Notes under the pieces: model-generated
The model's database searches: none
Seen by the model: only the letters and a program-made list of their open reading frames with translations
Told to the model about the DNA's origin: nothing
NCBI GenBank assembly: GCA_903858835.1
Contig: CAIOKD010000024.1
Span: forward strand, 1 to 43,851
Origin: an uncultured Verrucomicrobiota bacterium
Lineage (GTDB): Bacteria > Verrucomicrobiota > Verrucomicrobiia > Limisphaerales > UBA9464
Direction of reading: 5' to 3'
Length of the DNA: 43,851 nt
Translations under genes and position numbers: made by a program
Shown here: one piece after another, positions 3,212-38,518 of the stretch
How the letters are laid out: the number at the start of each line of letters is the position of its first letter
How positions within the stretch are numbered: position 1 is the stretch's first letter

Positions 3212-3285
3212 CCTGTCCGTGGTGATCGGAACCATCGGTCCCTCGAACCTTTGGGCATTCCAGCAGGGCGTGGCGTCGCACGCAC

Positions 3286-3316
3286 AAAAAAAAGCCGCCC
3301 CAGAGGCGGCCTTTTG
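3286..3316. terminator. Bidirectional intrinsic terminator between convergent genes
   Basis: A8 run (3286-3293), stem GCCGCC (3294-3299), loop CCAGA, stem GGCGGC (3305-3310), then CTTTTG. On the minus strand the hairpin is followed by T8, so it is the stronger terminator for the ymdB-xseA-cytochrome operon. On the plus strand it is followed by T4. Confidence 0.6.
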
Positions 3317-3398
3317 CTGGAAATCGGAGGAGAAACCAGGGGGATCGGCGGGGAGCAGGAGGAACCCTGACGCCCGACCGCCTATCTTGGCTCGGGGC

Positions 3399-3779
3399 TC
3401 AGTCGGGCTTGTGGACCGAATGGCAGGCCTTGCAGTTGACGGCTGTCTTGAAGCCGTCGAGCGCACCGGGCTTGCCGGCGGCCAACGATTCGGCGGCGGC
3501 CTGAAGGGCCTTCGTCTTCTCGGTCCAGCTGGCCAAGTCGCCCTTGGAAGGCTTGTTCAGCGCCAGTTCCTTGGTCAGGAAGGCCATCTTCTTGAAATCG
3601 GCCTCATTCCCCTGCCCCTTCGAGATACGGGCACTGAGCGATTCCTTGCCCTTGAACCCGTCTTCCATGATCTGCTCGATGGAGAGGGAGGGCTTGGACG
3701 CGGACGAGGTGGACGCGCATCCGGCCGCGACGAGGGCGACCGCGGCGGCGGCGAGGAGGGAGGAGGTCGTGGATTTCAC
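3399..3779 (-). CDS. Lipoprotein, class II (cytochrome c-prime / c556-like) c-type cytochrome
   Basis: GTG start. Lipobox-like signal: AVALVAAGC. About 126 aa, helix-rich, with a single CXXCH (CKACH) about 10 residues from the C-terminus. That placement is the hallmark of class II four-helix-bundle cytochromes c. Confidence 0.68.
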   Translation of the reverse strand: MKSTTSSLLAAAAVALVAAGCASTSSASKPSLSIEQIMEDGFKGKESLSARISKGQGNEADFKKMAFLTKELALNKPSKGDLASWTEKTKALQAAAESLAAGKPGALDGFKTAVNCKACHSVHKPD

Positions 3780-3794
3780 GGGAGATTCGGCCGA

Positions 3795-21520: not shown

Positions 21521-22372
21521 TCAGAACTTCCAGACGAGGTCCACGGTGACCCGATCCTTGAAGATGTCGGCCGAATCCGCGACACCGACCTCATAGGAGG
21601 CGCCGAAATCGATCGACGATGTCAGGTGGGATCGGAAGCCGACGCCCACCGCCCCCTGGTAGCGGCCGGAGGCATTGCTGCTGCCGAAGTTGATCACATC
21701 GAATCCCTCCGAACGGAGACCGAGGCCATTGCCGTCGCTCACCGTCAGGAAGGAGTTGTACGAGACGAACGGCGTGAACCAACGATGACACGCATAGTCC
21801 ACCATCGCGTTGAACCGGAGGTTCGAAGTGTTGGCGTCGGCATCGAAGGGAACGGTGCCACCCACGTTGGCATTCACGTGGAAACGGTCCCATCCCTTGA
21901 TCGCGGACACGAAGAGATCGGCCCGGCCCTTGCCCTCGCCCTGGAAGACCTCGGAGTTGCCGGTGGGGACGGTGACGGTGAATCCCGGCGTCACGGCGAA
22001 CTGGTTGGCCGTATCCTGGATCGCCACATACTTCAGCCCCGCGGCGAGATCGTTCCAACCGTCGAGGGTCGTGCCGTTGTCGAGATGGATACGGGTGTAG
22101 CCGTCACGGGTGGCGATGAACGCCAAGCGATCGGTGAAGGCGTACCGCAGTTGCATGGCATACACCTGGGCATCGGCGCCCACCCCGAGCAGTCCGGAAT
22201 CGAGCCTGTGATAGGCGAAGAGCGGGCGGACTTCGCTCTGGACGAGCGCGGACTCGAAGTAGATCGGATTGGCCACCGGGACGATGGCCGTGTCGAAGCC
22301 GTCGTTGGCGGCGATGGCGGTGGCGGTGACCGCGAGCCCGAGGAGGGCCGCACCCTGCATTGGATTCTTCAT
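21521..22372 (-). CDS. Outer-membrane beta-barrel protein (MetA / phenol-degradation-like transporter family, tentative)
   Basis: ATG at 22372 gives the signal peptide MKNPMQGAALLGLAVTATAIAA. Alternating amphipathic beta-strand pattern throughout. C-terminal OMP signature: VTVDLVWKF with terminal Phe. I reject the ORF-track extension to 22531. Confidence 0.68.
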   Translation of the reverse strand: MKNPMQGAALLGLAVTATAIAANDGFDTAIVPVANPIYFESALVQSEVRPLFAYHRLDSGLLGVGADAQVYAMQLRYAFTDRLAFIATRDGYTRIHLDNGTTLDGWNDLAAGLKYVAIQDTANQFAVTPGFTVTVPTGNSEVFQGEGKGRADLFVSAIKGWDRFHVNANVGGTVPFDADANTSNLRFNAMVDYACHRWFTPFVSYNSFLTVSDGNGLGLRSEGFDVINFGSSNASGRYQGAVGVGFRSHLTSSIDFGASYEVGVADSADIFKDRVTVDLVWKF

Positions 22373-22530
22373 GCGGCCCGAGCATGGAAGGTTCCAGCGA
22401 TCCGAGAACACCGCGCCTTGGCCACCACTGCACGGCCTTTGTCCCCGCATGCGGTTCCGGAATCCCCGTGTTCCGCCTCCGTGGTGCTCGCACGCTGGAC
22501 TCGCCACGAAGGCAGGCGCACACTCGTCCA

Positions 22531-23154
22531 ATGATTCCCCTCGAAGTGCGTCTCCTCACCCTGTCCCTCGTCGCCCTACCGCTGTGGGCTGGCGAGGCCA
22601 AATCCCTGTTCGATGGCAAGACCCTCCGAGGCTGGGAAGGCGACCCCAAGGTTTGGTCCGTCCAGGATGGAGCCATCACGGCCGGACGCCTGGACCTGAA
22701 TTTCCCGCGCAACGAGTTCCTGGCCACCACCCGCGGCTACACCAATTTCATCCTGCGACTGCAGTTCAAGATCGAGGGCACCGAGGGATTCGTGAACTCG
22801 GGCGTCCAGATCCGCAGCGAGCGGGTGCCGAACCACCATGAGATGGTCGGGTACCAGGCCGACATCGGAGAGGGCTGGTACGGTGCCCTGTACGACGAAT
22901 CGCGACGCAACACCATCCTGGCAAAGCCGGATCCGGAGGTCGTGAAGAAGGCGGTCAAACCCGGCCAGTGGAACCACTACGAGATCAAGGCCGATGGAAA
23001 CCGGGTGACCCTGAAAATCAACGACATCCAGACCGTGGACTACACCGAGAAGGACCCAAAGGTCGTGCCCCACGGAAAGTTGGCCGTGCAGATCCACGGG
23101 GGTGGGAAGAGCCGGGTCCAGTTCAAGGACATCAGCCTCGAGGAATTGCCCTGA
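22531..23154 (+). CDS. Secreted DUF1080 (3-keto-disaccharide hydrolase-like, concanavalin-type) domain protein
   Basis: ATG at 22531 with signal LLTLSLVALPLWAGEA. DUF1080 pattern: LFDGKTLRGWEG...WSVQDGAITAG, FILRLQFKIEG..NSGVQIRS, GYQADIGEGWYGALYDE, WNHYEIKADGNRVTLKINDIQTVDY, GKLAVQIHGGGKSRVQFKDISLEEL. Confidence 0.85.
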   Translation: MIPLEVRLLTLSLVALPLWAGEAKSLFDGKTLRGWEGDPKVWSVQDGAITAGRLDLNFPRNEFLATTRGYTNFILRLQFKIEGTEGFVNSGVQIRSERVPNHHEMVGYQADIGEGWYGALYDESRRNTILAKPDPEVVKKAVKPGQWNHYEIKADGNRVTLKINDIQTVDYTEKDPKVVPHGKLAVQIHGGGKSRVQFKDISLEELP

Positions 23155-24444: not shown

Positions 24445-24502
24445 ACCGCGGTACGGACGTACAGACTTGGACCGACAAAGATTACACCCACTGCACCGCG
24501 GT
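24445..24502. promoter_or_regulatory. Two copies of the 8-bp palindrome ACCGCGGT, 50 bp apart, in a divergent intergenic region
   Basis: ACCGCGGT occurs at 24445-24452 and 24495-24502. This lies between the pfkB-type kinase (minus strand, start 24433) and the PSCyt2/PSD1 operon (plus strand, start 24648). It is a candidate operator pair with no functional evidence. Confidence 0.25.
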
Positions 24503-24647
24503 TGTCTTCAAGATTTCTGGGGTGGGCGGGTCATGGCGAGTGCGCTCCCGCCCCCGGTGCCCCGATAAAAACAAACGTCGGGCCGCAACGCCTCTTGTCT
24601 GGATCACGGCCCGGCGCCTAGCATTCGCCTTCAACCCCTGACGGCTC

Positions 24648-27176
24648 ATGCGTTTGCCCCTGTCATCCTGGATGGCCGCCCTGTTCCTGGGCGCATCCCT
24701 CCCCCATCCCGCACTGATCGCGGCCGAACGCGGCGCCGACAAGCCGATCCCACCCGAACCACCGGTGCCCGCCATCCGGTCGTTGAGGCTGGAACCCGAC
24801 CGTCTGACCCTGCTCGACGGACGTGATTCGCGGAAGGTCCTGGTCCTGGGCGAGACTCCGGATGGTTCGTGGATCGACCTCGGGTCGGTGGCCCGCCTGA
24901 AGCCCGAGACCGAGGCCGTGGCCCTCGATTCCGACGGCTATCTGGTTCCGCGCCAGGTCGGCAAGTCGGCGGTGAGCGTCAGCGCCGGGGGCCGAAATGC
25001 ACGCCTCGAGGTCGAGGTCCGGAGCATCGCATCCCCCGAGGTCGGCTTCGTACGGGACATCGAGCCGATACTGAGCCGAGCCGGCTGCAACTCGGGCCCT
25101 TGCCACGGATCGGCCAAGGGCAAGAACGGGTTCAAGCTCGCGCTGCGCGGTTACGATCCGGAGTACGACTATCAGGCGCTGGTCAACGACCTGAGCGGCC
25201 GCCGGTTCAACCGGGTGCATGTCGACGATTCGTTGATGCTCCAGAAGCCCCTGGGGGACATCCCGCACGAGGGGCGTCAAGCGCTGGTGCCGGGCTCGCG
25301 CTACCACCAGACGCTCCGGCAGTGGATCGCCGAGGGGGCCCGATTCCAGGAGGTTAAACCCAACCGGCCCACGGGCATCCGGGTCCTGCCCGAGAAGGTC
25401 CGGCTCGACCTCGCCGGACGCCGGCAGCAGTTCCTGGTGATCGCCACCTACCCCGACGGCTCGACGCGCGATGTGACCCGCGAGGCGGTGTTGAGCAGCA
25501 ACAACGAGGAGGTGGGACTGGTTCAGGGAGCCACCGTGATCCCGCTCCGACGGGGCGAGATGGCCGTCCTGGTCCGGTACGAGGGTGTCTACGACGCGCG
25601 CGAGGTCACGGTCATGGGCGACCGCACCGGCTTCCGTTTCGCCGCAATGCCCGAGTACAACTTCATCGACCGCGCGGTGAACGCCAAGCTCGAGAGCCTG
25701 AAGACCAACCCGAGCGAGCTGTGCACCGACGCCGAGTTCATCCGGCGGGTGTCCCTCGACATCACCGGCCAACCGCCGACGGCCGACGCCGTGCGCGCCT
25801 TCCTCGCCGACAAGACCGAGTCCCGCCGGAAGCGCGAGGCGCTGGTCGATACCCTGATCGGCTCTCCAGCCTACTCGGAGTTCTGGGCCAACAAGTTCGC
25901 CGACCTCCTGCAGTGCAATTCAGAGATCCTCGGGAAAAAGGGGGTCTGGGTGTTCCGCAACTGGATCCGCGACCAGTTCGCCTCGAACCGCCCGTTCGAC
26001 GCGTTCACCCGCGACCTGGTCCTCGCCAAGGGCAGCACCTTCGAGAACCCGGCAGGCAACTACCTGAGGTCGCTGCGCGACTCCGGGAAGATGACCGAGG
26101 ACATCTCGCAGACGTTCCTCGGCGTGCGTTTCAACTGCAACAAGTGCCACGACCATCCCTTCGAGCGCTGGACCCAGAACCAATATTACGAATTCGGAGC
26201 GTTCTTCGCCCAAGTGGCCTTCAAGCGCGGCACGCTGGGGCGGGATCATCTGATCGGCTCCGGGGAGACCTACGCCCATGAGCAGGTCTCCGAGGAGATC
26301 GTCTACCCCAACGATCAGGGCGGCGAGATCAAGCACCCCAAGAACGACGCGGTGGTGTCCCCACGGGTGCCCTACGGCGAAAGCCGAGCCATCGCCCCGG
26401 GCGAGGACCGCCGCGAGGCCTTCGCCGTGTGGCTCACCGCCAAGGAGAACCCCTACTTCGCGAAATCCACGGTGAACCGTTTCTGGAGCTATTTCTTCGG
26501 CCGAGGAATCATCGATCCGGTCGACGACATCCGGGCCGGCAACCCGCCCAGCAACCCGGCCCTGCTCGAGGCCCTCACCGCACGATTCGTCGCCGACGGC
26601 CACGATCTGCGAAAGCTCATCCGGCACATGGCGACCTCCCGGACCTACCAGTCGAGCATCGTTCCCAACCGCTGGAACGAGGATGACCTGGTCAACTTCT
26701 CGCATGCCCTGCCCCGCCGCCTCAGTGCCGAGCAGATGCTAGACTCGATCGCCGTGGCCACCGGGCGACCGCTGCAGTTCTCCAACCTGCCAGAGGGGAT
26801 GCGCGCCGCGCAATTGCCCGATGGCCTCGTGCCCGGCAACGACTTCCTGAGCCTCTTCGGGCGTCCCAAGCGGCAGAGCGCCTGCGAATGCGAGCGGTCC
26901 AGCAATGTGACGCTGTCCCACGCCCTGAACCTGATCAACGGAAAGACCCTCGGCGAATGCGTGAACCGCAACGACAACCGGTTCTCCCGCCTGGTCGCCG
27001 AACAGTCCGACGACCGCAAGGTCATCGAGGAGATCTACCTCGGCTGCCTGGGCCGGATGCCGACCGCCAAGGAGTTGTCCACGATCCGCCTGGGTGAGGG
27101 GGCCCAACGCCTCGAAGGTGCCCAAGACCTCGCCTGGGCACTGATCAACAGCCCCGCCTTCCTTTTCAACCGCTGA
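24648..27176 (+). CDS. Secreted Ig-like / DUF1549 (PSCyt2) / DUF1553 (PSD1) protein
   Basis: Signal: MRLPLSSWMAALFLGASL. Motifs: FVRDIEPILSRAGCNSGPCHGSAKGKNGFKLALRGYDPEYDY. DUF1549: RRVSLDITGQPPTADAVRAFLAD...LIGSPAYSEFWANKFADLL, and FLGVRFNCNKCHDHPFERWTQNQYY (contains CXXCH). DUF1553: NPYFAKSTVNRFWSYFFGRGI, LFGRPKRQSACECERSSNVTLSHALNLINGKTL, LINSPAFLFNR. Confidence 0.88.
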   Translation: MRLPLSSWMAALFLGASLPHPALIAAERGADKPIPPEPPVPAIRSLRLEPDRLTLLDGRDSRKVLVLGETPDGSWIDLGSVARLKPETEAVALDSDGYLVPRQVGKSAVSVSAGGRNARLEVEVRSIASPEVGFVRDIEPILSRAGCNSGPCHGSAKGKNGFKLALRGYDPEYDYQALVNDLSGRRFNRVHVDDSLMLQKPLGDIPHEGRQALVPGSRYHQTLRQWIAEGARFQEVKPNRPTGIRVLPEKVRLDLAGRRQQFLVIATYPDGSTRDVTREAVLSSNNEEVGLVQGATVIPLRRGEMAVLVRYEGVYDAREVTVMGDRTGFRFAAMPEYNFIDRAVNAKLESLKTNPSELCTDAEFIRRVSLDITGQPPTADAVRAFLADKTESRRKREALVDTLIGSPAYSEFWANKFADLLQCNSEILGKKGVWVFRNWIRDQFASNRPFDAFTRDLVLAKGSTFENPAGNYLRSLRDSGKMTEDISQTFLGVRFNCNKCHDHPFERWTQNQYYEFGAFFAQVAFKRGTLGRDHLIGSGETYAHEQVSEEIVYPNDQGGEIKHPKNDAVVSPRVPYGESRAIAPGEDRREAFAVWLTAKENPYFAKSTVNRFWSYFFGRGIIDPVDDIRAGNPPSNPALLEALTARFVADGHDLRKLIRHMATSRTYQSSIVPNRWNEDDLVNFSHALPRRLSAEQMLDSIAVATGRPLQFSNLPEGMRAAQLPDGLVPGNDFLSLFGRPKRQSACECERSSNVTLSHALNLINGKTLGECVNRNDNRFSRLVAEQSDDRKVIEEIYLGCLGRMPTAKELSTIRLGEGAQRLEGAQDLAWALINSPAFLFNR

Positions 27177-27206
27177 CCGCCCCAACCCCGTCTCTCTACC
27201 CAGCCC

Positions 27207-28661
27207 ATGATCTCCATCCCCGGCCTCTCCGGAGCCACCTGCGACGGCTTCAATCGCCGTGAATTCATGCGACTCGGCGGCGCCGGCCTGCTTGGCCTCA
27301 GCCTGGCCGACATCCTGCGGCTCCAGGCCGAACAACCGAAGACCGTCGGCCCCGCCCCGGGCCAGCCAAAGAACGGTTGGGGATCGGCCAAGCAGGTCCT
27401 GATGATCTACCTGCAGGGCGGACCCAGCCACATCGACATCTGGGATCCCAAGCCCGACGCGCCGTCGAATGTCCGGGGTGACTTCAAGCCGATCCGCACC
27501 AAGGTACCTGGCATCCAGCTCAGCGAGGTCATGCCCAAGCTGGCGCAGCAGATCGACCGGGCCACGCTCATCCGCTCCATGAGCTACACCCCGGCTGGGC
27601 TCTTCAACCACACGGCCGCGATCTACCAGATCATGACCGGCTACACCCCGGACCGGGTGTCGCCCTCGGGCCAGCTCGAACCTCCGGCTCCCAATGATTT
27701 CCCCCACATGGGCGCCCAGATCTCGCGGCTCAAGCCGCTCGACATCCCGATGCTGCCCTTCGTGATGCTGCCCCGCCCGCTCCAGGAATCGAACGTGATC
27801 GGCAAGGGTGGCACCGCCGGATTCCTGGGAGCGGCCTACGACCCCTATTACTTCTACCAGGACCCCGCCAAGGGCATCAATCTGGACGACCTGACGCTCC
27901 GCAAGGAGGTCAGCAAGGAGCGCCTCGATCGCCGTTCCACGCTGCTCAAAGCGGTCAACGAGGCCATGCCCGACATGGAGAAGGCCGTCGAGAAGTACGC
28001 CCTCGACCGCTACTACCAGAAGGCCTTCGACCTGGTCAGCAGCGGCCGCGCCCGCGACGCCTTCGACCTCTCCAAGGAGAAGGACTCGCTGAGGGACCAG
28101 TACGGGCGGCACACCTTCGGGCAGGGACTGCTCCTGGCCCGGCGCCTCTTGGAATCGGGCACCCGCTTCGTGCAGATGAACTGGCCGGCCGTGGCCAACG
28201 GCGACCCGACCGTCGACGCCTGGGACACCCATGCGGCGAATTTCGGTCCCCTGCGCAATCTCCACTGCCCCAAGCTCGACTCCGGCCTCAGCGCGCTGCT
28301 GGAGGACCTCGACGAGCGGGGACTGCTCAAGGAGACCCTGGTGTTGGCCCTCGGAGAATTCGGACGCAGCCCGCGCCTGGGCGTGAGCACCAGCGGCAAC
28401 ACCAATTCCCCGGACGGACGGGATCACTGGCCCTATTGCTACACGGCCCTCATCGCGGGCGCCGGGATCCGACGCGGGGCCTTGTACGGCAAGTCCGACG
28501 CGACCGGCTCCTCCCCCATCGAGACGCCGGTACACCCGACCCAGATCGTCGCCACCGTGTACCATGCGCTGGGCATCGACCCGCACACCATGGTCATGAA
28601 CCACCTGAACCAGCCCCGCGAACTGGTCCAGGCCGAACCCGTCACCGGACTCTTCGGCTGA
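27207..28661 (+). CDS. Tat-exported DUF1501 protein (sulfatase / alkaline-phosphatase superfamily fold)
   Basis: Twin-arginine-type leader: [22 protein letters not shown]1501 pattern: [97 protein letters not shown]. It starts 30 bp after the preceding gene. Confidence 0.9.
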
Positions 28662-28731
28662 GCCTTACACCAGATACGAAGCCGATCCGGCGCAGGTCCC
28701 GACCGACCGATCGGAAGCACTCCTGTTTTTC

Positions 28732-31134
28732 ATGAGACACACTCTTGCTCTGGTGGCTGCATGGCTGTCGCTCTCAGGCATCCTGACGGCTCAACCCGCT
28801 CCCAAGCTGGATTCCGCCTCGGTCCAATGGCTCCAGCGTGGATCAACCCAGCAGGTCACCCTCAAAGGAGAAGCACTGAGCGGAATCACCGCAGTGCTCA
28901 TCAACAGCTCGGGGACGTACAGCTCCGGGATGTCCGCGACACCAGTGGCCCCGCCGACTCCGGCCGTCACTCTCGAAGGATCCGGAAACGGCCTGTCCAG
29001 CGCACCGGGGAATTCCGGTCAAGCCCTCACGCTCCGGTGTGTGGTTTCAGCCGACGCGGCCCTGGGTCCACGGGAACTCCGCGTCGCCGGTCCTGACGGT
29101 GTGTCGAACCCGCTCACCCTCGAAGTGAGCGACCTCCTCGAGATCACCGACCCCAGGACCAACAGCACCCGGGCGAGCGCCTTCTGGATGCCACTGCCCG
29201 CCGCCCTCTCCGGGGTGATCAACACCAACGCCGAGTCGGATTTCTTCCGGTTCAAGGCCCAAGCGGGCAAAACCCTGCTCTTCGATGTGCAGGCCAATCG
29301 CACCGGATCCCCTCTCGATGCCAACCTCATCCTGCGCGACCTGGACGGCAAGGAACTGCAGCGCAGCGAAGATGTCCACGGTCTCGACCCCTTCATCGAG
29401 TTCACCCCCAGCGCCGACGGAGAGTACCTCCTCGAACTCCACGACCTCCGATTCCAGGGTGGCGGCGACTACCGCTACCGTCTGGTCGCGGGGCGGGTGC
29501 CTTATCTGGAATCGCTCTTCCCCCTCGGCGGCAAGCGGGGTGGTTCGGTGGCGTTGCAGTGGATCGGCAAGAATCTGGAAGGCGTCGAGACGTTGCCGGT
29601 TCAAATCGCCGCGGGGGCGTCGCTCGGGCGTCAAGAGGTTCGGGCTCGGACGCCCCTGGGGTTTTCCAATCCCTTGGACTTCGAGGTGGGCGACCTGGAG
29701 GAATCCCTGGAGACCGAACCCAACAACACTCCCGACCAGGCCCAGAACCTGACCCTGCCCCGGGTCGTCAATGGGCGCATGGGTGCTGAAAAGGACGTGG
29801 ATACCTTCCGCTTCAAGGCCGCGGCTGACCAGAAGTGGGTCATCGAAGTCCGGGCTCGCTCTCTGGGATCCCGCCTCGACGCATTGCTCACCCTCTCCGA
29901 TACCAATGGAACGGTCCTTCAGCGCAACGACGACGCTTCGGGGCCGGATGCCCGCATCGAGTTCGATGCAAAAAAAGACACCGAATACCGGGTCGCCCTG
30001 CGCGACCTCACCCAGCGCGGGGGCGATCGCTTCGGCTACCGCATGAGTTTCGTGGCCCCCGATTCGAAGCCAGATTTCGGGGTCCGCACGACCGGGGGCC
30101 GATTCCGCGTCGCCCGAGGGGGGTCCGTCGCCATCCGGTGCGAGGTGGACCGACGCAATGGCTTCGATGGATTGGTTCGCGTCGAGCCCGAGGGGCTTCC
30201 ACCCGGCGTCTGGGCTCCGCCGCTGATCCTCGGCCCGGGCACGTCCGTCGGATGGTGGGTGATCTCGGCCAACGCCGACGCGCCTCTGGGTTACGCTACG
30301 CTCCAGGCCCGGGGTGTCGGCGACCACCAAGGCAGGCCCATCCACCGTTCCGTGCAATTCTCCGAGAGGGCGTGGATCACGGTCCTCCCGACGGTACCGT
30401 TCGATCTGAGCGTGGCACCGGCCAGCGTGACGGCCGAACAGAATGCCGCCACCGCCTTGGAAGTCCGAGTCAACCGACACGCCGATTTCGACGGGGAGGT
30501 GCGGATCCTGGCCGAAGACCTCCCGGGCGTCTCCATCCCCGCCGTCACGGTTCCGGCCGGTCAAGCCCGCACCCGACTCCCACTGCAAGTCGCCCAGAAC
30601 GGTGAGGCGGGAGTACGAATGGTCATGGTCCGAGCCGAAGCCACGGTGAAGGGACAAACCCTCTCCACCCATGCCCCGGCTCCGGTGCCGCTGACGGTGC
30701 AGCCCATCCCGATGTTCCTCACGGCCATGCTGCCGGGTTCGCCCTTCTTCCGCACCGACCCGGTCCGGTTGTCGGCGGTGGCGCTGCCCGAAGGCACCCG
30801 ATCCGAGGCCAACCAGACCCAATTCGTGGTCAAGGTCGACCGACGGGGGGTGTCCGGCGAGATCGAACTACGCCTGGAAGATCTCCCCAAGGGAGTGGAG
30901 GCTGGGATTTCGAACATCCCGACCAACAAGACCGAGGCGACCCTGCACCTGAAGGTTTCTCCCAAGGCCGAGACCGGCAAGGAGCATCAGTTCCGGGTCG
31001 TCGCCAGCGCCACCCACCAGGACCGCGTCTGGCGGCAGAAGACCCAACCCATCCACCTGACCCTCACCGCACCGGAACCCGAGGCTTCCGGGAGCGCCGC
31101 CCCCAAGAGTGCCGCCGACAAGGCAAAGCCATGA
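28732..31134 (+). CDS. Secreted protein with two pre-peptidase C-terminal (PPC) domains and Ig-like repeats
   Basis: Signal: MRHTLALVAAWLSLSGILTAQ. PPC-like unit 1: ESDFFRFKAQAGKTLLFDVQANRTGSPLDANLILRDLDGKELQRSEDVHGLDPFIEFTPSADGEYLLELHDLRFQGGGDYRYRL. PPC-like unit 2: DVDTFRFKAAADQKWVIEVRARSLGSRLDALLTLSDTNGTVLQRNDDASGPDARIEFDAKKDTEYRVALRDLTQRGGDRFGYRM. I see no catalytic domain. Confidence 0.75.
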   Translation: MRHTLALVAAWLSLSGILTAQPAPKLDSASVQWLQRGSTQQVTLKGEALSGITAVLINSSGTYSSGMSATPVAPPTPAVTLEGSGNGLSSAPGNSGQALTLRCVVSADAALGPRELRVAGPDGVSNPLTLEVSDLLEITDPRTNSTRASAFWMPLPAALSGVINTNAESDFFRFKAQAGKTLLFDVQANRTGSPLDANLILRDLDGKELQRSEDVHGLDPFIEFTPSADGEYLLELHDLRFQGGGDYRYRLVAGRVPYLESLFPLGGKRGGSVALQWIGKNLEGVETLPVQIAAGASLGRQEVRARTPLGFSNPLDFEVGDLEESLETEPNNTPDQAQNLTLPRVVNGRMGAEKDVDTFRFKAAADQKWVIEVRARSLGSRLDALLTLSDTNGTVLQRNDDASGPDARIEFDAKKDTEYRVALRDLTQRGGDRFGYRMSFVAPDSKPDFGVRTTGGRFRVARGGSVAIRCEVDRRNGFDGLVRVEPEGLPPGVWAPPLILGPGTSVGWWVISANADAPLGYATLQARGVGDHQGRPIHRSVQFSERAWITVLPTVPFDLSVAPASVTAEQNAATALEVRVNRHADFDGEVRILAEDLPGVSIPAVTVPAGQARTRLPLQVAQNGEAGVRMVMVRAEATVKGQTLSTHAPAPVPLTVQPIPMFLTAMLPGSPFFRTDPVRLSAVALPEGTRSEANQTQFVVKVDRRGVSGEIELRLEDLPKGVEAGISNIPTNKTEATLHLKVSPKAETGKEHQFRVVASATHQDRVWRQKTQPIHLTLTAPEPEASGSAAPKSAADKAKP

Positions 31135-32546
31135 TCCCTCCTCTTCCTCGCCTTCTGCGTCCCCAAGGCCGCATCGCCCTCGCCGGCCTTCTCCTGTCCG
31201 GCGCCCTGGGCTCCGGACTGCTTGCCCCGGCCTCCATCGCCGCCGCCGATGCTCCCGTCTCGTGGTGGCGCGACGTGACGCCCCTCTTCAAGCGCTCGTG
31301 CAACGGGTGCCACAATCCGAACAAGATGAAGGGCGAGGTCGACACCTCGACGTTCGCCGGCCTGATGAAGCCCGGAAAGCAGGGCCCGAACCTGGTGGTG
31401 GGCGATCCCGACAAGTCCCTCTTGGTCTCCTCCATCTCGGGCAAGGAACCCGACATGCCCAAGGAGGGCGACTCCCTGTCGGCGGCCGAGGTGGCGCTCA
31501 TCGCCCGCTGGATCCGGGAAGGGGCCAAAGATGACACGCCCGCCGACGCCTATTCGACCCGCCTCAAGGAGCCGCCCACCTATGCCCTGCCCCCGGTGAT
31601 CAGCGCACTCGACGTGTCCCCGGACGGCCGGAGCATCGCCGTGGCCGGCTACCATGAGGTCCTGCTCATTGACGCGGGAACCTGGGCGCTGGCCGGCCGT
31701 CTGTTGGGCGAATCGCCGCGCATCGAATCGGTGGCGTTCTCGCCGGATGGGAAATCTCTCGGAGTCAGCGGCGGAGCCCCGGCCCGATTCGGCGAGATCC
31801 AGGTCTGGAACCCGGTCGAGGCACGACAGGTCCGATCCCTTCGCCTCACCGGCGACTCGCTGTTCGGTCTGTCCTGGTCTCCCGACGGCACCCGGATCGC
31901 GACCGGGGGTGCCGACAAGAGCGTCCGTGTCACGCGGGTTTCCGACGGGGGCGAACTCGTCAAGTTCGACAACCATGGCGACTGGGTCTTCCGCACCGCG
32001 TGGCTCACCGATGGTACCCGTCTCCTGAGCGCCAGCCGCGACCGGGCGATGAAGCTCATCGATGCGTCCAATGGGCAATTCATCGATGACGTCAACAAAC
32101 TGCTCGAACCCATCGCCAGCATGGCCCGTCATCCCCGCGAGGAGTGGGCGGCCTACGGCGGTGCCGAGGGCGGGCTGCGGGTCTACCGGGCCAAGGAGAA
32201 CCAGGATCGCACCGCGGGCAACAACGACGTGAACCTGGTCCGGGAATTCGAGCGCCAGCCCGGACCGGTGCACGGGGTCGCCTTCAGCCCCGACGGTACG
32301 CTGCTGGCGGCGGGAAGCACGGGCTCCGAGGTGCGCGTCTACGAGACCGCCTCTGGAAAGCGGGCGGCCACGCTCAAGGGTCACGGCGGACCGGTCTTCA
32401 CCCTGCGATTCTCCCCCGATGGCCGGCGGCTCTACACGGCCGGCTTCGAGGGCATCCTCCGAGTTTTCAATCCGGCCACGGGAAGCCTGGAGGCGATCCT
32501 CTACCCGGTGCCGATCACCCCGTCCCGCCAGACGGCCGGACGGTGA
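31131..32546 (+). CDS. Secreted PSCyt1 (Planctomycete cytochrome c) - WD40 beta-propeller protein
   Basis: The ATG overlaps the upstream stop (ATGA, 31131-31134). Signal: IALAGLLLSGALGSGLLAPASIAAA. PSCyt1: FKRSCNGCHNPNKMKGEVD...VVGDPDKSLLVSSISGKEPDMPKEGDSLSAAEVALIARWIREGA. WD40 repeats: VAFSPDGKSLGVSGG, LSWSPDGTRIATGGADKSVRV, VAFSPDGTLLAAGSTGSEVRVY, LRFSPDGRRLYTAGFEGILRVF. Confidence 0.85.
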   Translation: MIPPLPRLLRPQGRIALAGLLLSGALGSGLLAPASIAAADAPVSWWRDVTPLFKRSCNGCHNPNKMKGEVDTSTFAGLMKPGKQGPNLVVGDPDKSLLVSSISGKEPDMPKEGDSLSAAEVALIARWIREGAKDDTPADAYSTRLKEPPTYALPPVISALDVSPDGRSIAVAGYHEVLLIDAGTWALAGRLLGESPRIESVAFSPDGKSLGVSGGAPARFGEIQVWNPVEARQVRSLRLTGDSLFGLSWSPDGTRIATGGADKSVRVTRVSDGGELVKFDNHGDWVFRTAWLTDGTRLLSASRDRAMKLIDASNGQFIDDVNKLLEPIASMARHPREEWAAYGGAEGGLRVYRAKENQDRTAGNNDVNLVREFERQPGPVHGVAFSPDGTLLAAGSTGSEVRVYETASGKRAATLKGHGGPVFTLRFSPDGRRLYTAGFEGILRVFNPATGSLEAILYPVPITPSRQTAGR

Positions 32547-32575
32547 TGGCCGGGCGGTGATCCGAGGTCGTGGAA

Positions 32576-32592
32576 CCCGGGCCTCACCCGGG
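32576..32592. terminator. Weak GC hairpin between convergent genes
   Basis: CCCGGG (32576-32581), loop CCTCA, CCCGGG (32587-32592). No flanking T or A run, so intrinsic-terminator function is doubtful. Confidence 0.25.
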
Positions 32593-32602
32593 GACCGGAA
32601 CC

Positions 32603-33538
32603 TCACTTCATCGGCACGCCCAGTTCCGACCGACCGTTGGTGGTCAGTATCTGGAAATGGTGCACCCCGGCCGCCAGCGGGTGATCGCTGGTCCAGACGA
32701 TCTTCCGGTCCCGGTTCAGCTCCACCATCGAGATGCCCTGGTTGGCCGCATGGCTGCCGACCACCGTGTTGCCGTTGGCCAACCGCTGCGATCCGCAGGG
32801 ATCCTTGAAGAGTCCGCCGACATCCTCGTTGGTGACCTTCCAGACGATCTGTCCCGACGGGGCGAACTCGGCCACCTTGTTGCCGTGGGTCAACGAGACC
32901 AGCGTGTTGCCGTTGTCGAGCCGGATGGCGGTGAACGGCCAATTCTCGGCCGGCCGACCGCCCAATTCGGCCAGATCGGTGCGCAGCGTGGCCACCACCC
33001 GGCCGTCCGGCGTGTACTCCTTCACCGCGAAGGCAAGGAGGTGCGGGACCAGGTAGTTGCCGTTCTTCAACTGCCGGGCCATGCGGGTCTGCATGTGGGC
33101 GTTGTCGGTCTCCGGCTGGAGCGGCGTCTCGTGGACGATCGCCCCCCGCCCGTCCACCTCCAGCAACCGGGGCCGCTGGCCGAGTTCGGTCACCAGCGTG
33201 TTGCCGTTGTAGAGGCGCTGCACGGTGCCGATCTCGGCATTGTCGGGATTGCGGGTGTAGGAGAACACCACCTGCTTGGCCGGGGTGACCTCCTCGACCC
33301 GGTCCGACCACGCCAGCAGCGCGTTGCCGTTGGGCAGCACAAACCCGTCGCGGGTTCCGCCCCGGTACTCCCAGCGGGTCGCACCGTCCTCGCCGATGAT
33401 CGCCGTCTTGGCGCCCATCACCAGGTAGGAGTGCCGGATGGAGGACGCAGCCTTGTCATCGGCCATTCCGACGGAGGCGGTGGCAAGGACGAGGATCCAG
33501 GCGGTGCTGGAAACAACGAGAGAACCGGAAGCGTTCAT
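32603..33538 (-). CDS. Secreted beta-propeller protein (repeated NGN-T/A-L-V blades; PQQ-like or arylsulfotransferase-like fold, family uncertain)
   Basis: ATG at 33538 gives the signal MNASGSLVVSSTAWILVLATASVGMA. Five evenly spaced blade signatures: LPNGNALLAW, LYNGNTLVTE, LKNGNYLVPH, LDNGNTLVSL, LANGNTVVGS. I reject the ORF-track extension to 34003 because it overlaps the divergent gene. Confidence 0.7.
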   Translation of the reverse strand: MNASGSLVVSSTAWILVLATASVGMADDKAASSIRHSYLVMGAKTAIIGEDGATRWEYRGGTRDGFVLPNGNALLAWSDRVEEVTPAKQVVFSYTRNPDNAEIGTVQRLYNGNTLVTELGQRPRLLEVDGRGAIVHETPLQPETDNAHMQTRMARQLKNGNYLVPHLLAFAVKEYTPDGRVVATLRTDLAELGGRPAENWPFTAIRLDNGNTLVSLTHGNKVAEFAPSGQIVWKVTNEDVGGLFKDPCGSQRLANGNTVVGSHAANQGISMVELNRDRKIVWTSDHPLAAGVHHFQILTTNGRSELGVPMK

Positions 33539-33684
33539 GGGAATCTGGGAACAGGATCCGCTGCCGGACGCGGGTTCCCAAGGCAAAAATGGGGCGAAGA
33601 TCGGGCCCCTCGCGGGGTCATTCCGAACCAGAAAGACCTCCCCGGCGGACCGTCTCGTCCCTAGACTCTGGTGCATTGGCCCGG

Positions 33685-36600
33685 ATGAAACTCTTCCCAC
33701 TGCTCGCACTGCTCCCCCTGTCCGTCGTCGGGGTCTTGGCGCAAAGCCCCTCGACCGATCCCGCGGTCGGACTCGAGTTCTTCGAGCAACGCATCCGCCC
33801 GGTGCTCGTGGAATACTGCCACGAGTGCCACAGCGCCTCGGCAACGAAGGTGCAGGGAGGCTTGAGGGTGGACTCCCGAGCGGCCCTCCTCGCCGGCGGC
33901 GACTCCGGCCCGGCCCTGGTTCCCGGGAAACCGGACGCCAGCCTGCTGATCCGCGCCGTGGACCACGTCGAACGAGGACTGGCCATGCCTTCAAAACGGG
34001 CACGATTGCCCGAACCGGTGCGGCAGGATCTGCGGCGCTGGGTGGCGGCAGGAGCCGTCTGGCCCGGCGGCCAAACCCCGGAAACCACGGAAGCCCCGAC
34101 CAAGGATCGGTTCAATCTCGAGGAGCGTCGAAAGGCCCAGGCATGGCTTTGGGAACCGCCACGCCGCCAGGCCATCCCCACGATCCGTCGCACGCAGTGG
34201 GCCAAGGATCCCGTCGATCATTTCATCCTGAACCCGCTCGAGGAGCGGTGGCTCCGCCCGGCGGAACCCGTCGAGGACGCGGTCTGGTTCCGCCGCGCCA
34301 GTGCCGCCGTCACAGGGCTGCCCCCGAGCCCTGAGGAACGCCAGCGACTGGAGGCGGAGGCCGGGCCCGCCGCACGGGAGCAGGCGGTCGATCGGCTCCT
34401 GGCCTCGCCGCATTTCGGGGAGCGCTGGGCGCGCCACTGGATGGACCTGATGCGGTATGCCGAATCCCGCGGCCACGAATCCGACTTCGCCATCGCCAAC
34501 GCCTGGCAGTACCGCGATTACCTCGTGCGGGCCTTCAACGACGATGTGCCCTACGACCGGTTCCTTCAGGAGCACCTCGCCGGGGACCTGCTCCGACCGC
34601 CCCGTCTGCGACCGGGCACCGACCACAACGAGTCCGTGCTGGGCACCGGTTGGGCATTCCTCGGCGAGGAGGTGCATTCGCCGGTGGACATCCGTCAGGA
34701 CGAGTGCGACCGGATCGACAACAAGATCGACGTCTTCACCAAGTCCTTCCTCGGCCTGACCGTGGCCTGTGCCCGCTGCCACGACCACAAGTTCGACCCC
34801 ATCCGAAGCCAGGACTACTACGCGCTGTCCGGGTTCATCCTGGGCTCGAGCTACCGGCAGGTGCGCTTCGAGGCCATGGAGAACAACCGCCGCATGGCGC
34901 AGGAACTCCAGCAACTCCGCGGCCGGCACCTCCCGCTCTTGACTCAGCGCGCGGGAGCCGTGCTTCGGCCCGCCGCCCAGCGTCTGGCATCGACGGTGAA
35001 CCAAGCGTTGGAGGGCAAACCCACGACCCACGAGACCTCAGCCTGGGTCGCGGAACTGCAACGGGCCGGGACCAACCGGCAGCACCTGCTGCACCCGCTG
35101 GTCCAACCCGAGGCCCGCACCGGGACACCCTCGGCCACGGACGGAGATCCGTTCCCCGCCCGGCGGATCATCGCCGATTTCACCCGAGCCCATGCCCAAC
35201 CGTGGAAGGCCGATGGCGAGGCCTTCGGATCGGGTCCCCTGCCGCCGGGAACCCTGGTGGCGGGACTCACCGAAGGACTCCCCGTCCTCCGCGTCGTGGA
35301 CCTCGGTGCGGCCCGGCGCGACGCCTTCTGGAACCGCCTCTCCAACACCCCGGGCAACGAGAACGACTCCGGCCGCATCGGATCGGCCGCCCGTGCCGGC
35401 CGCATGCTCCGCACCCCCACGGTCACCCTGCGATCGGGTCGACTGCACTACCTCATGCGTGGCCGCGCCAAGGTCTTCGCCTCCGTCGATTCGCACCTGA
35501 TGGTCGAGGGACCGCTTCATGGAGCGCTGAACCAGACCTTCGACACGGGCGATTCGCTGGAGCCCAAATGGGTCACCCACGGGCTCGAAGCGTATTCCGG
35601 CCATCGGGCCCACCTCGAGTTCGGCCCCGATGGGGATCGGGAGCTCGAGATCCTGCAGGTGGTGGAATCGGAGACGGTCCCGACCTGGCAACCCGTGCCC
35701 CTGGTGGCCGGAGCCCGCCGCGACACTCCGGTGAAGGACCTGTTGGACGCGCTCCAGCAGCGCGCACTCGAGGCTTGCGACTGGCTCGAGGGCCGCGGCA
35801 CGAACACGCCGTCGACAGCGGTCCTCCGTTGGACCGACTGGTGGCTGCAACACCCGGAACTCTCGGGCCTGGCAAGCGACAACGAGTACCGGGAACTCGC
35901 ACGTCGGTTCCTCCAGGACCAGGAGGCCCTGGCCGGCAAGGTGGTCTGGCAGTCCCGCACCGCCGTCGCCTGGATGGACGGGACCGGGGGTCGACGAACA
36001 CGTCCTCGTGAGAGGAAAGCCCTTCAAGTCGGGAGTGCTCGCCCCACGCAGCCTCCCGGTGGCCTTCTCGGCAGCGCACCCGATCCAACCGGCCGACTCC
36101 AGCGGCCGCCTCGAACTCGCGCGGCAATTGGCCGACCCGTCCAACCCGCTGGTCGCCCGGGTCTGGGTCAATCGTGTCTGGCACCACCTCTTTGGCCGCG
36201 GCCTGGTGCCCACCGTGGACAACTTCGGGGCCCTCGGCGAACGCCCCACTCATCCCGAATTGCTGGATCATCTGGCCTGGCAATTCGTCCATGTCGACCG
36301 CTGGTCGACCAAGCGCCTCATCCGACGATTGCTGCTGACCCAGACCTACGCCATGGGCAGTCGCGACAGCGACACGCGGGCGCCCGAACTGGACCCGGCC
36401 AACCAATGGTGGCACCGCATGCCCGTCCGCCGTCTCGAGGCCGAGGCGATCCACGATGCACTGCTGGCGGTCTCGGGCCGACTCGACCCCGCCCTCGGCG
36501 GCCCTCCGGTGCCGGTCCACCTCACCGAGTTCGTGATCGGCCGCGGTCGCCCCGACCAGAGCGGCCCCCTCGACGGCAACGGGCGCCGGAGCCTCTACAC

Positions 36601-36991
36601 GGCCCTCCGGCGAAACTTCCTGCCGACCACCCTCCAGGCTTTCGACTTCCCCACCCCGTTCAGCACGGTGGGGCGCCGCAACGTCACCAACGTCCCGGCC
36701 CAGTCGCTGGCGGTGATGAACGACCCCTTCTTCCACCAGCAGGCCGAACTCTGGGCCCGGCGCCTCCTGAGGGAGCATCCACAGGCAGACCTTCCGACCC
36801 GCGTCCGTGCCCTGTTCCTCCAAGCCTACCATCGGTCGCCGACACCGGCCGAACTCGAGGCCTGCCGGGCGACCTTGGCCGAACTTCATGCCTTCCATGC
36901 ATCGGAACCCGGCGGCTCCTCGGAGATCGGGCCCTGGATCGATTTCTGCCACGCGCTCCTGAACGCCAACGAGTTCATCTACCTGCCCTGA
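33685..36991 (+). pseudogene. PSCyt1 / DUF1549 (PSCyt2) / DUF1553 (PSD1) protein gene interrupted by a 1-nt frameshift (or an assembly indel)
   Basis: Frame A (33685 to ~35988):
- signal MKLFPLLALLPLSVVGVLAQ
- PSCyt1: FFEQRIRPVLVEYCHECHS...PGKPDASLLIRAV
- DUF1549: RRASAAVTGLPPSPEE...LLASPHFGERWARHWMDLMRYAESRGHE, and FLGLTVACARCHDHKFDPIRSQDYY
Frame B (~35987 to 36991):
- DUF1553: RLELARQLADPSNPLVARVWVNRVWHHLFGRGLV...HPELLDHLA...NVPAQSLAVMNDPFF...DFCHALLNANEFIYLP
The junction is at GGGGG 35986-35990. Deleting one G gives the continuous family-like sequence WMDGTGVDEHVLVRGKPFKSG. Confidence 0.8.
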
Positions 36992-36993
36992 CC

Positions 36994-38457
36994 ATGAGCC
37001 CTTTCCATCTCCACGGAGGATCTGTCGGAGCACGGATGAGCCGCCGCGAACTGCTGCGCCGCGCGTCCAATGGCTTCGGAACCCTCGCCCTGGGCACCCT
37101 GCTCTCCCGGGCCTCCACGCCGAGCCTTTCGGGTGCCAGCAAGACGGTGACCGACACTCCGGTGTCGTCCCTGCCCCACCATCGAGCCAGGGCCCGGAGC
37201 GTGATCTTCCTTTTCATGGAGGGCGCGGTGTCGCAGGTGGACAGCTTCGACCACAAGCCGATGCTGGAGAAGTACCACGGCCAGGACGCCCGGAAGGCCA
37301 TGGGTCGGATCGAGAAGACCCAGTTCGACAGCATCGGCAAGATCCTCAAGTCGCCCTGGACTTTCCGCCAACACGGGCAGAGCGGCCTCTGGATCAGCGA
37401 CCTCTTCCCGCACATCGCCCGACAGGCCGACGACCTGTGCGTGCTTAGGTCCATGACCTCCACCTTCCCGGAGCACACCAGCGCCAACTACTTCCTCCAC
37501 AGCGGCATCGGCCTGCAGGGGCGTCCAAGCATGGGCGCCTGGGTGAATTACGGACTGGGTTCCCTCAACGACAACCTGCCGGGATACGTGGTGCTCAACG
37601 GTGGCCAGATTCCCTCCGGCGGCCTCGACAACTTCGGCAGCGGATTCCTGCCGGCGACCTTCCAGGGTTCGTTGCTGCAGGCCCACGGGACTCCCCTGGC
37701 CAATGTCGTGCCCTCGGAGAAGCAGTCACGGTTGCAGCAGACCAAGCAACGCCTGGTCCGCCGCCTCAACGAGCACGGCCTGGAGCAGGCGGGCCCGGTC
37801 GACGCTCTGGAATCGGCCATCCGCAACTACGAACTGGCCGCACGCATGCAGGTGACCATCCCGGAATTGATGGACATCTCCGGAGAAACGGCGGCCACCC
37901 GCGCCCTTTACGGGCTCGATGCCCCCTATGAACACACCCGGACCTATGCGCGGGAGTGCATCCTGGCCCGCCGCATGGTCGAGCGCGGGGTCCGCTTCGT
38001 GGAACTCACCATCCCGATGGTCGACGGCTACAGCCGCTGGGACGCCCACGGCGGTCTGGTGAAGAATCACGGCGACAACGCCCGGGCCGTGGATCAACCG
38101 ATCGCCGGGTTGCTCATCGACCTCAAGCAACGCGGCCTCCTCGATGAGACCCTGGTCGTGTGGGCCGGTGAATTCGGACGCACTCCCTTCGCCCAGGGCA
38201 GTGACGGACGCGATCACAACGAGTACGGCTTCTCGGTCTGGCTGGCCGGTGGCGGCATCCGCGGCGGCATGGCCTTCGGCCAGACCGACGACTGGGGCTA
38301 CAAATCGGTCGTGGACCGCCTCGAGATGCACGACCTGCACGCGACGATCCTTCACCAACTGGGCGTCCATCACGAACGCCTGACCTACCGGTTCGGCGGG
38401 CGCGACATCCGGCTCACCGACGTCAAGGGCGAGGTCATCCGGGAAATCCTCGCGTGA
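36994..38457 (+). CDS. Tat-exported DUF1501 protein (second copy)
   Basis: It starts 2 nt after the preceding stop. Leader: MSRRELLRRASNGFGTLALGTLL (an alternative ATG at 37036). DUF1501 pattern: VIFLFMEGAVSQVDSFDHKP, ECILARRMVERGVRFVELT, WDAHGG, LVVWAGEFGRTPF, DGRDHNEYGFSVWLAGGGIRGGMAFGQTDD. Confidence 0.9.
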   Translation: MSPFHLHGGSVGARMSRRELLRRASNGFGTLALGTLLSRASTPSLSGASKTVTDTPVSSLPHHRARARSVIFLFMEGAVSQVDSFDHKPMLEKYHGQDARKAMGRIEKTQFDSIGKILKSPWTFRQHGQSGLWISDLFPHIARQADDLCVLRSMTSTFPEHTSANYFLHSGIGLQGRPSMGAWVNYGLGSLNDNLPGYVVLNGGQIPSGGLDNFGSGFLPATFQGSLLQAHGTPLANVVPSEKQSRLQQTKQRLVRRLNEHGLEQAGPVDALESAIRNYELAARMQVTIPELMDISGETAATRALYGLDAPYEHTRTYARECILARRMVERGVRFVELTIPMVDGYSRWDAHGGLVKNHGDNARAVDQPIAGLLIDLKQRGLLDETLVVWAGEFGRTPFAQGSDGRDHNEYGFSVWLAGGGIRGGMAFGQTDDWGYKSVVDRLEMHDLHATILHQLGVHHERLTYRFGGRDIRLTDVKGEVIREILA

Positions 38458-38518
38458 CCCGGTCGCCCGCTTGGGCTTCACTCCTTCGCATCACCCGCAC
38501 GTCCTCTTCGATCCGAGC

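Follow-up and report, generated by a model that had tools for sequence, protein, structure and literature searches.

A Four-Gene DUF1501 Cluster from Freshwater Verrucomicrobiota: a Very Probable Copy of a Published Module and a Tentative View of Its Role

The 43,851-nucleotide (nt) stretch of DNA analyzed in this study (contig CAIOKD010000024.1 of an uncultured Verrucomicrobiota bacterium, hereafter the window) carries four adjacent genes on its + strand, the products of which are designated P1 (PSCyt2/PSD1 protein), P2 (DUF1501 protein), P3 (PPC protein) and P4 (PSCyt1/WD40 protein). This cluster is very probably an orthologous copy, from freshwater Verrucomicrobiota, of the four-gene DUF1501 module published by Kamneva et al. 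in 2012 (Genome Biol Evol, PMC3542564). We assign a probability of roughly 0.6 to the combined statement made here, in which this identification is joined to a more doubtful sketch of how the four proteins may act together in the periplasm.

In the 2012 analysis of the neighborhoods of all DUF1501 genes, the "most complex gene clusters" consisted of four genes, encoding a DUF1501 protein (sometimes with a twin-arginine translocation (Tat) signal), a signal-peptide protein with one or several weak PPC domains and uncharacterized conserved regions, a PSCyt1/Big_2/PSCyt2/PSD1 protein and a PSCyt1/WD40 protein (PMC3542564). The cluster, exemplified by the V. spinosum locus, was conserved across species of the Planctomycetota-Verrucomicrobiota-Chlamydiota (PVC) group; targeting to membranes and a part in electron transport were proposed, and its function was given as unknown (PMC3542564). 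Compared with the V. spinosum locus by this published description, the window cluster shares all four architectures, the conserved clustering and the restriction to PVC bacteria, and nothing essential differs; the PSCyt1 domain of P1 has CX4CH instead of CXXCH and was seen by profile-profile comparison only. Because this PSCyt1-like domain was found, the cluster matches the published architecture fully. An earlier note on this DNA had considered the extension of a PSCyt/DUF1501 pair by PPC and PSCyt1-WD40 proteins to be unusual and the whole to be a candidate for an undescribed system, a claim that does not stand given the 2012 publication (PMC3542564). Its further statement, that these families are expanded in PVC bacteria and have no assigned biochemical function, agreed with the literature up to 2026, and no functional study of DUF1501, DUF1549, DUF1553, PSCyt or DUF1800 was found in the full-text literature to mid-2026.

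With its cluster type already on record in 2012, this locus is one more example and does not by itself open the functional question. In Planctomycetota and Verrucomicrobiota, phyla of importance to carbon cycling in water and soil, few gene families without an explanation are as large as PSCyt, PSD and DUF1501; the four-gene version is their most conserved form, and learning its function would account for a sizeable part of the genome content specific to PVC bacteria. The new points provided here are a cryptic CX4CH domain in P1, a quantified gene order with separable sub-modules, the constraint on a DUF1501 protein that has no sulfatase signature, and the lack of a structural relative for the PSCyt2-PSD1 body.

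According to the open reading frame (ORF) listing of the window, the four genes occupy positions 24648-27176 (P1, 842 amino acids (aa)), 27207-28661 (P2, 484 aa), 28732-31134 (P3, 800 aa) and 31131-32546 (P4, 471 aa). Read directly from the DNA, the P1/P2 junction consists of TGA, 30 nt and ATG, the P2/P3 junction consists of TGA, 70 nt and ATG, and the P3 stop and P4 start share 4 nt (ccATGAtc, 31131-31134), which confirmed the same-strand packing, the gaps of 30 and 70 bp and the ATGA overlap described in the earlier note. Such tight packing suggests an operon, a reading that is favored because no + strand terminator-like site was detected within the cluster by a terminator scan and because of the P3/P4 overlap. 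Upstream of P1, a divergent intergenic region (24479..24647), in which the promoter of the cluster is presumed to lie, is followed by a PfkB kinase gene on the minus strand; since this gene is divergent, the cluster begins a transcription unit. No sigma-70 consensus was found upstream of P1 by a promoter scan, which is uninformative for this phylum.

Domain architecture of the four proteins

All four products appear to be exported, three through the general secretory (Sec) pathway and the DUF1501 protein through the Tat pathway, as had been claimed before. In P1, P3 and P4, visual inspection and hydropathy pointed to N-termini of the Sec type, with a positively charged n-region, then a hydrophobic core and an A-x-A-like site; P2 carries the motif NRREFMR. 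The CXXCH motifs that had been pointed out in the first protein (CNKCH) and the fourth (CNGCH) were located at aa 497 of P1 and aa 57 of P4. Additionally, Pfam profiles recovered every domain pair named previously, namely PSCyt2 with PSD1, DUF1501, two PPC domains, and PSCyt1 with WD40. The immunoglobulin (Ig)-like calls fared unevenly, as those in P1 were supported by a PDB sequence search and by Foldseek, whereas the evidence for those in P3 is indirect (i.e., an internal duplication and repeats).

The P1 gene (24648..27176) encodes a signal peptide, an Ig-like domain, a PSCyt1-like domain with a CX4CH motif, a Big_2 Ig-like domain, PSCyt2 with a CXXCH motif, and PSD1, as determined with Pfam, an ortholog alignment and an AlphaFold2 (AF2) model; P1 homologs showed 60-99% identity. 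The model (predicted local distance difference test (pLDDT) 76.7, predicted template modeling score (pTM) 0.79) consists of two Ig sandwiches and a large helical body. The first Ig-like beta-sandwich (aa 45-124, 24780..25019) was modeled with strands of pLDDT >90 and had Foldseek matches to LigA/LigB Big_2 domains, and the second, of the Big_2 type (aa 241-322, 25368..25613), was identified through a phmmer search of PDB sequences, AF2 strands and Foldseek. The Big_2-like repeats matched the Ig repeats of the teneurin-like proteins 9ifo/9pt5 in the phmmer search (E 1e-15), and Foldseek matched the model to LigB 2mog (TMt 0.78).

Between the two beta-sandwich domains, an invariant block (GCNxGxCHGSAKGKNGFKLxLRGYDP in 13 aligned orthologs) falls within a divergent PSCyt1-like domain (aa ~127-237, 25026..25358). 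This region received no PSCyt1 call from Pfam profiles and was found by profile-profile comparison only, where it aligned to the PSCyt1 domain of P4 with a probability of 96% (hhalign, E 2.5e-9). Relative to PSCyt1, its heme motif (CNSGPCH, aa 147-153, 25086-25106) carries a two-residue insertion that yields CX4CH, and in place of the Met of "MPKEG" there is an invariant His207, within "PHEG"; C147, C152, H153 and H207 are invariant in the 13 orthologs. The identification of this cryptic domain, which the earlier note had missed, is a modest new point and a partial correction.

Downstream lie PSCyt2 (DUF1549; aa 340-523, 25665..26216; Pfam E 1e-48), with the string CNKCHDHP (aa 497-504, 26136-26159) invariant in orthologs, and PSD1 (DUF1553; aa 588-813, 26409..27086; Pfam E 2e-45), with an invariant ACECER motif (C746, C748). 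The ortholog alignment showed the invariant Cys residues outside the two heme-type motifs to be C423, C746, C748 and C800. In the much more distant loci L080 and L085, both CX4CH and CXXCH recur with hardly any shift in position. P1 carries two heme-c-type motifs, set between its Ig domains and a large helical PSCyt2-PSD1 body. The model is confident overall, but its pLDDT drops below 50 over four stretches (aa 147-169, 197-211, 497-507 and 725-755) in which the invariant Cys/His motifs lie, and this is consistent with what would be expected of unmodeled cofactor sites. As a candidate distal ligand for the CX4CH motif, the invariant His207 aligns to the position of the Met in P4, and in the PSCyt2 region, where pLDDT is low, no candidate was assigned. 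The PSCyt2-PSD1 body (~500 aa) had no solved structural relative, either in the PDB sequence search or in Foldseek of the P1 model, where the matches were to Ig domains only. A relationship of PSD1 to DUF1800 was also considered but found no support, as there was no Pfam match even at E<=10.

The second putative heme protein, P4 (31131..32546), is composed of a signal peptide, a PSCyt1 cytochrome-c-like domain (aa 57-112, 31299-31466; Pfam E 1e-8), with the motifs CNGCH and MPKEGD, and a WD40 propeller (aa ~158-452, 31602-32486; Pfam E 2e-32). The CXXCH motif was found in 57/57 orthologs and MPKEGD was conserved in at least 90%; P4 has two Cys residues in all, both of them in CXXCH. This combination of CXXCH and Met would be the classic signature of a mono-heme c-type, class-I-like domain, and PSCyt1 is grouped by Pfam with the cytochrome c families. 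No Ccs or Ccm genes were found within the 43,851-nt window. By analogy, P4 has the same gross layout (N-terminal class-I-like cytochrome c plus propeller) as cd1 nitrite reductase and the quinohemoprotein dehydrogenases, which are cytochrome-c-plus-beta-propeller periplasmic redox enzymes; its propeller differs in consisting of canonical WD40 repeats with no recognizable pyrroloquinoline quinone (PQQ) or d1-heme signature. WD40 repeats are typically scaffolds.

These motifs may also be read without heme. In such a case the CXXCH/CX4CH clusters (CNKCHDHP, ACECER) would bind metal or form disulfides, P1 and P4 would be non-redox scaffolds, and the complex would be purely hydrolytic or binding. 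An unusually ligand-rich string, C-x-x-C-H-D-H-P-x-E, does surround the PSCyt2 motif, and together with the four additional invariant Cys residues it would suit a metal site. None of the solved cytochromes detectably resembles the PSCyt2-PSD1 body, and one distant cluster (L080) contains a small heavy-metal-associated (HMA)-like ORF with a weak Pfam mark. This explanation is nevertheless unlikely, given that the N-terminal domain of P4 matches Pfam PSCyt1 and shows, with CXXCH in 57/57 orthologs, a conserved Met and no other Cys, the pattern of a c-type cytochrome, that aa 127-237 of P1 are homologous to that domain, and that the signals of P1 and P4 are Sec-type rather than Tat, as apocytochromes c require.

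P2 (27207..28661) matched DUF1501 of the alkaline-phosphatase/sulfatase superfamily with a Pfam E of 1e-101. Its twin-arginine motif (aa 16-22, 27252-27272), in which RR is invariant and which reads SRREFLR in orthologs, precedes an h-region of moderate hydrophobicity and an A-x-A site, as is expected of a Tat signal. The n-region before RR (MISIPGxSGxTCDG, aa 1-15, 27207-27251) is at least 90% conserved amongst orthologs, which is unusual for a signal peptide, and it might mark the binding site of a Tat proofreading chaperone. Across orthologs and ~30%-identical paralogs, D80, K82, H135, D340, H342, E384, R387 and H407 are invariant. The AF2 model, built from an orthologs-only alignment (pLDDT 56.7, pTM 0.67), had Foldseek matches to LtaS 4uor, the S1 sulfatases 7oz9/1p49/4miv, 3lxq and ENPP6 (E 3e-6 to 1e-4, probability 1.0), and the family profile gave sub-threshold sulfatase and LtaS matches over "LDSGL..LLEDL..RGLL.ETLV...GEFGR". 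No solved homolog of P2 was found in the PDB sequence search.

Judging by its profile and predicted fold, P2 belongs to the alkaline-phosphatase/sulfatase superfamily and bears a Tat signal. By its sequence, it is not a formylglycine sulfatase, because it lacks the C/S-x-P-x-R signature, which in its extended form was also missing from 37/37 aligned DUF1501 sequences. With the type I sulfatases, LtaS and ENPP enzymes it shares the alpha/beta core and a "...D..h..Lh..L...GLh..T.hhh.." segment ending at putative metal-ligand positions, whereas "GEFGR" takes the place of their "SDHG/SDNG" metal-ligand motif; identity is 10-13% and the template modeling (TM) score, from a weak model, is 0.3-0.4. 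The predicted Tat export of P2 is paralleled, as an analogy, by that of the phosphatases PhoD and PhoX, neither of which is known to belong to its fold superfamily.

P3 (28732..31134) contains a signal peptide, tandem [Ig-like + PPC] units and three C-terminal repeats, as recognized by Pfam (PPC twice, E 8e-13) and self-comparison, in which the Ig-like+PPC unit was duplicated with 41% identity (E 6e-32). The first PPC domain (aa ~140-255, 29149..29496) was delimited by its best Pfam stretch (aa 169-236) and the duplication alignment, and the second (aa ~325-445, 29704..30066) by a second Pfam stretch, an EPNN start with invariant D/N residues, and a ColG match at aa 323-371. The PPC domains showed weak profile matches to the ColG/ColH collagen-binding domains of clostridial collagenases. 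The C-terminal region (aa ~450-780, 30079..31071) comprises three weakly similar repeats of ~100 aa with the pattern "V.V.R..GF.GE..." (BLASTP self-comparison, E 3e-6 and 2e-3), which we presume to be beta-rich; no Pfam family matched these C-terminal ~330 aa, and domain searches of P3 detected no catalytic domain. P3 has hundreds of full-length homologs, and those that had organism names were almost all labeled Verrucomicrobiota. Its family is large, as an exhaustive HMMER search returned 2068 clusters (50% identity) at E<=1e-30.

Gene order and constraint in other genomes

To place the cluster amongst its relatives, a pattern scan with the P3 alignment was applied to GTDB contigs (one genome per species). 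It yielded 73 loci, nearly all from metagenome-assembled genomes (MAGs) of freshwater or soil Verrucomicrobiota, the closest being from a "Verrucomicrobiales bacterium" with a P3 identity of 91%. The four window proteins were compared with these loci by tblastn, and the 46 Verrucomicrobiota loci with enough flanking sequence were evaluated. P1-P2-P3-P4 were present in the same order and strand in 27 of the 46; P3-P4 only were found in 11, P1-P2-P3 without P4 in seven and P3 alone in one. The neighborhood comparison that the earlier note had proposed showed co-occurrence of the four genes far beyond chance, with the same order in 27/46 genomes at P3 identities of 37-91%. Of the grounds on which that note would have been refuted, a lack of HMM support for the domains and a lack of conserved order did not materialize.

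The four components differed in constraint. Identity to the window protein was highest for P2 (median 87%, range 77-99%), followed by P1 (median 70%, range 59-90%), P4 (median 65%, range 54-83%) and P3 (median 53%, range 37-91%), and the DUF1501 protein is by far the most constrained component. When all flanking ORFs of the 73 loci were clustered, no other flanking gene family was shared beyond close relatives, and no glycoside hydrolase, transporter, extracytoplasmic function (ECF) sigma factor or other regulator was conserved in the flanks of these loci.

In more distant relatives (P3 30-34% identity), represented by metagenomic contigs, the components stayed clustered with the order permuted. 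The low-GC locus L080 reads P4, a small HMA-like ORF, P1, P2, P3; L081 reads P2, P4, P3; and L082 reads P1, P2, two unknown ORFs, P3. In L083, P3 is followed by a DUF1080/FG-GAP propeller protein (2516-4294), and in L085 it is accompanied by an FG-GAP propeller (11447-12598), and ~2.3 kb downstream of P3 the opposite strand carries a P1-P2 pair. That the components stay together although their order has been reshuffled speaks strongly for a functional link among them. It also suggests two sub-modules, P1-P2 and P3 plus a propeller protein. Judging from L083 and L085, the pairing of a PPC protein with a beta-propeller may extend beyond propellers of the WD40 kind.

Two observations concern the loci themselves. 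The HMA-like ORF of L080 (3789-3953, between P4 and P1) encodes 54 aa with a weak Pfam mark and is a single instance. In addition, six module-bearing MAG records (L008, L051, L054, L055, L063 and L067) are titled "Akkermansia muciniphila" or "uncultured Bifidobacterium sp."; A. muciniphila is reported to lack the DUF1501 module (PMC4960237). These labels are probably wrong, as the contigs resemble Limisphaerales or Pedosphaera-type Verrucomicrobiota. Limnocylindria was a further organism label among the 73 loci.

The P1-P2 sub-module recalls simpler arrangements. Two-gene pairs of a PSCyt1/PSCyt2/PSD1 protein and DUF1501 were reportedly described by Studholme et al. in 2004, at dozens per genome in Planctomycetota and Verrucomicrobiota. 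Two-gene PSCyt/DUF1501 pairs were also described by He et al. 2017 (PMC5615132). With a Sec-type CXXCH protein followed by a Tat-type DUF1501 protein, P1-P2 belongs to these pairs. Ordinary pairs, however, usually have LamG, F5/8-C or carbohydrate-binding module (CBM) inserts and are highly variable paralogs, whereas P1-P2 has Ig domains, a CX4CH PSCyt1-like domain and a linked P3-P4. Furthermore, P2 is 77-99% identical amongst orthologs but ~30% identical to the DUF1501 protein of the neighboring paralogous pair in the window. Operons of DUF1800 and DUF1501, with function unknown, occur in Proteobacteria and others (Goncalves et al. 2016, PMC5122149); they likewise place a Tat-signal DUF1501 protein beside a large uncharacterized partner, but the DUF1800 partner lacks the PSCyt heme motifs of P1.

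Proposed role and competing explanations

The earlier note had read the cluster as encoding a multi-subunit periplasmic machine, which is reasonable in that the four genes stay clustered even with permuted order. In the sketch favored here, the four genes would be co-transcribed and their products would assemble in the periplasm from the two sub-modules. P1 would be the dedicated partner of the P2 enzyme, holding or positioning it, and P3 and P4 would pair as binding protein and propeller to recruit the target. Acting on a polymer that lies in the periplasm or is associated with the envelope, P2 would then cleave or transfer a group of the phospho- or sulfo-ester type, and the hemes of P1 and P4 might supply or remove electrons or sense redox state. 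Taken as a whole, this sketch is tentative and may well be wrong in its particulars.

Several observations weigh against it. In 19 of the 46 genomes the full set is not next to P3, so that an obligate four-subunit machine is not required. The candidate nucleophile of P2, Ser74 (in "GGPSH"), is kept in ~90% of members, not in 100%. The P2 model is poor (pLDDT 56.7) with TM 0.3-0.4 to any PDB entry, too poor for an active-site geometry to be read from it; the mapping of P2 onto known active sites relies on one weak hhalign match (probability 45%) and sub-threshold hidden Markov model (HMM) matches. Heme attachment, complex formation, co-transcription and the activity of P2 are all points that we infer. 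The redox link in particular is conjecture, because no alkaline-phosphatase-superfamily enzyme is known to need a cytochrome partner.

A housekeeping, possibly envelope-related role appears to fit the cluster better than substrate-specific scavenging, because P2 is 77-99% conserved where P3 falls to 37%, the genes form a single ortholog set, and no catabolic, transport or regulator genes lie alongside. The scavenging alternative, comparable to a polysaccharide utilization locus, supposes that the Ig domains of P1 and the PPC domains of P3 bind an external glycan or other polymer, that P2 removes sulfate or phosphate esters for use or for sulfur or phosphorus harvest, and that paralog expansion reflects substrate diversity. 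It draws on the finding of He et al. that many PSCyt proteins carry carbohydrate-binding modules and adjoin sulfatases, and that PSCyt genes reach their greatest density in genomes from the oxic epilimnion, in inverse relation to glycoside hydrolase density (PMC5615132). The sulfatase/phosphatase-superfamily fold predicted for P2, the relation of the PPC domains to the collagen-binding domains of clostridial collagenases, and the presence nearby in the window of a second PSCyt/DUF1501 pair, a homolog of DUF1080 3-keto-disaccharide hydrolases and a GFO/IDH/MocA oxidoreductase would all fit such a role. The single orthologous unit and its pattern of constraint are, however, atypical of niche-specific catabolic genes, and no glycoside hydrolase, transporter, ECF sigma factor or other regulator is conserved alongside. 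Furthermore, Pfam recognized no carbohydrate-binding module in P1 or P3, and P2 is without the sulfatase C/S-x-P-x-R signature. We regard scavenging as improbable.

A stronger version of the favored sketch would have the P1 hemes (bis-His at CX4CH, plus PSCyt2) and the P4 heme form an electron path to or from the DUF1501 metal center, with oxidative or reductive chemistry on a housekeeping envelope component. This is a long shot. If true, it would represent a new kind of periplasmic enzyme system, in which an alkaline-phosphatase fold goes beyond pure hydrolysis and its target is presented by the PPC/propeller pair.

The hypothesis of Kamneva et al., that the module is targeted to intracytoplasmic or invaginated membranes and contributes to "compartmentalization" of the cell, is favored by a reported correlation coefficient of 0.852 between the presence of the four-gene locus and that of intracellular membranes (PMC3542564), and the housekeeping-like conservation of P2 would be in keeping with it. 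That correlation is confounded by phylogeny, as its authors acknowledged, and internal membranes also occur in the anammox planctomycete K. stuttgartiensis, which has no DUF1501. All four proteins carry ordinary Sec or Tat periplasmic export signals, and no transmembrane or membrane-coat-like domain was found in P1-P4 with Pfam and NCBIfam, which together leave an endomembrane role highly improbable. Lastly, chance adjacency of four members of large paralogous PVC families, without functional coupling, might be entertained given how hugely these families are expanded, the second PSCyt/DUF1501 pair 1 kb downstream and the genomes with only part of the set next to P3, but it is effectively refuted by the neighborhood survey, in which the same four orthologs kept their order in 27/46 genomes that are not near-clonal (P3 identity 37-91%), the components stayed clustered with permuted order in more distant genomes and nothing else in the flanks was conserved, and by the 4-nt P3/P4 overlap.

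Other genes in the window

Directly after the cluster, on the same strand, a 364-aa ORF (32570-33664) begins with a GTG start 23 nt after the P4 stop. It had no Pfam or NCBIfam match, and more generally the NCBIfam search found no informative family. This ORF was considered as a fifth gene of the module and rejected, as only the closest relatives have it (L007, with 65% identity, L010 and L015); within that lineage it may form a fifth gene of the transcription unit.

A second, paralogous PSCyt1-PSCyt2-X-PSD1 plus DUF1501 pair is located directly downstream (33589-38457). The 1622-aa ORF that spans these positions was considered as a natural PSCyt-DUF1501 fusion of the Rosetta-stone type and rejected, since PSD1 (E 1e-83) lies in another frame (36008-36991). 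The profile of GC content at third codon positions (GC3) switches frame between ~35735 and ~35950 in this second PSCyt gene, and this switch, together with the position of PSD1 in the other frame, indicated that the 1622-aa ORF arises where GC-rich DNA is read through in the wrong frame. The PSCyt gene of this pair thus appears to be frameshifted, as a pseudogene or through an assembly error, and the DUF1501 gene of the pair starts near 37000.

The region is flanked by the DUF1080/3-keto-disaccharide hydrolase homolog (22360-23154) and the GFO/IDH/MocA oxidoreductase, which has a C2-type C-terminal domain (38471-39802). These are typical periplasmic sugar-oxidation genes of PVC genomes; here they are syntenic in close relatives only and fall outside the conserved module.

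Farther upstream in the window, an uninterrupted 713-aa ORF (7841-9982) combines three full-length domains that are normally in separate proteins, namely a low-molecular-weight phosphotyrosine phosphatase (aa 5-143), an RpiB ribose-5-phosphate isomerase (aa 161-298) and a serine hydroxymethyltransferase (aa 306-682).

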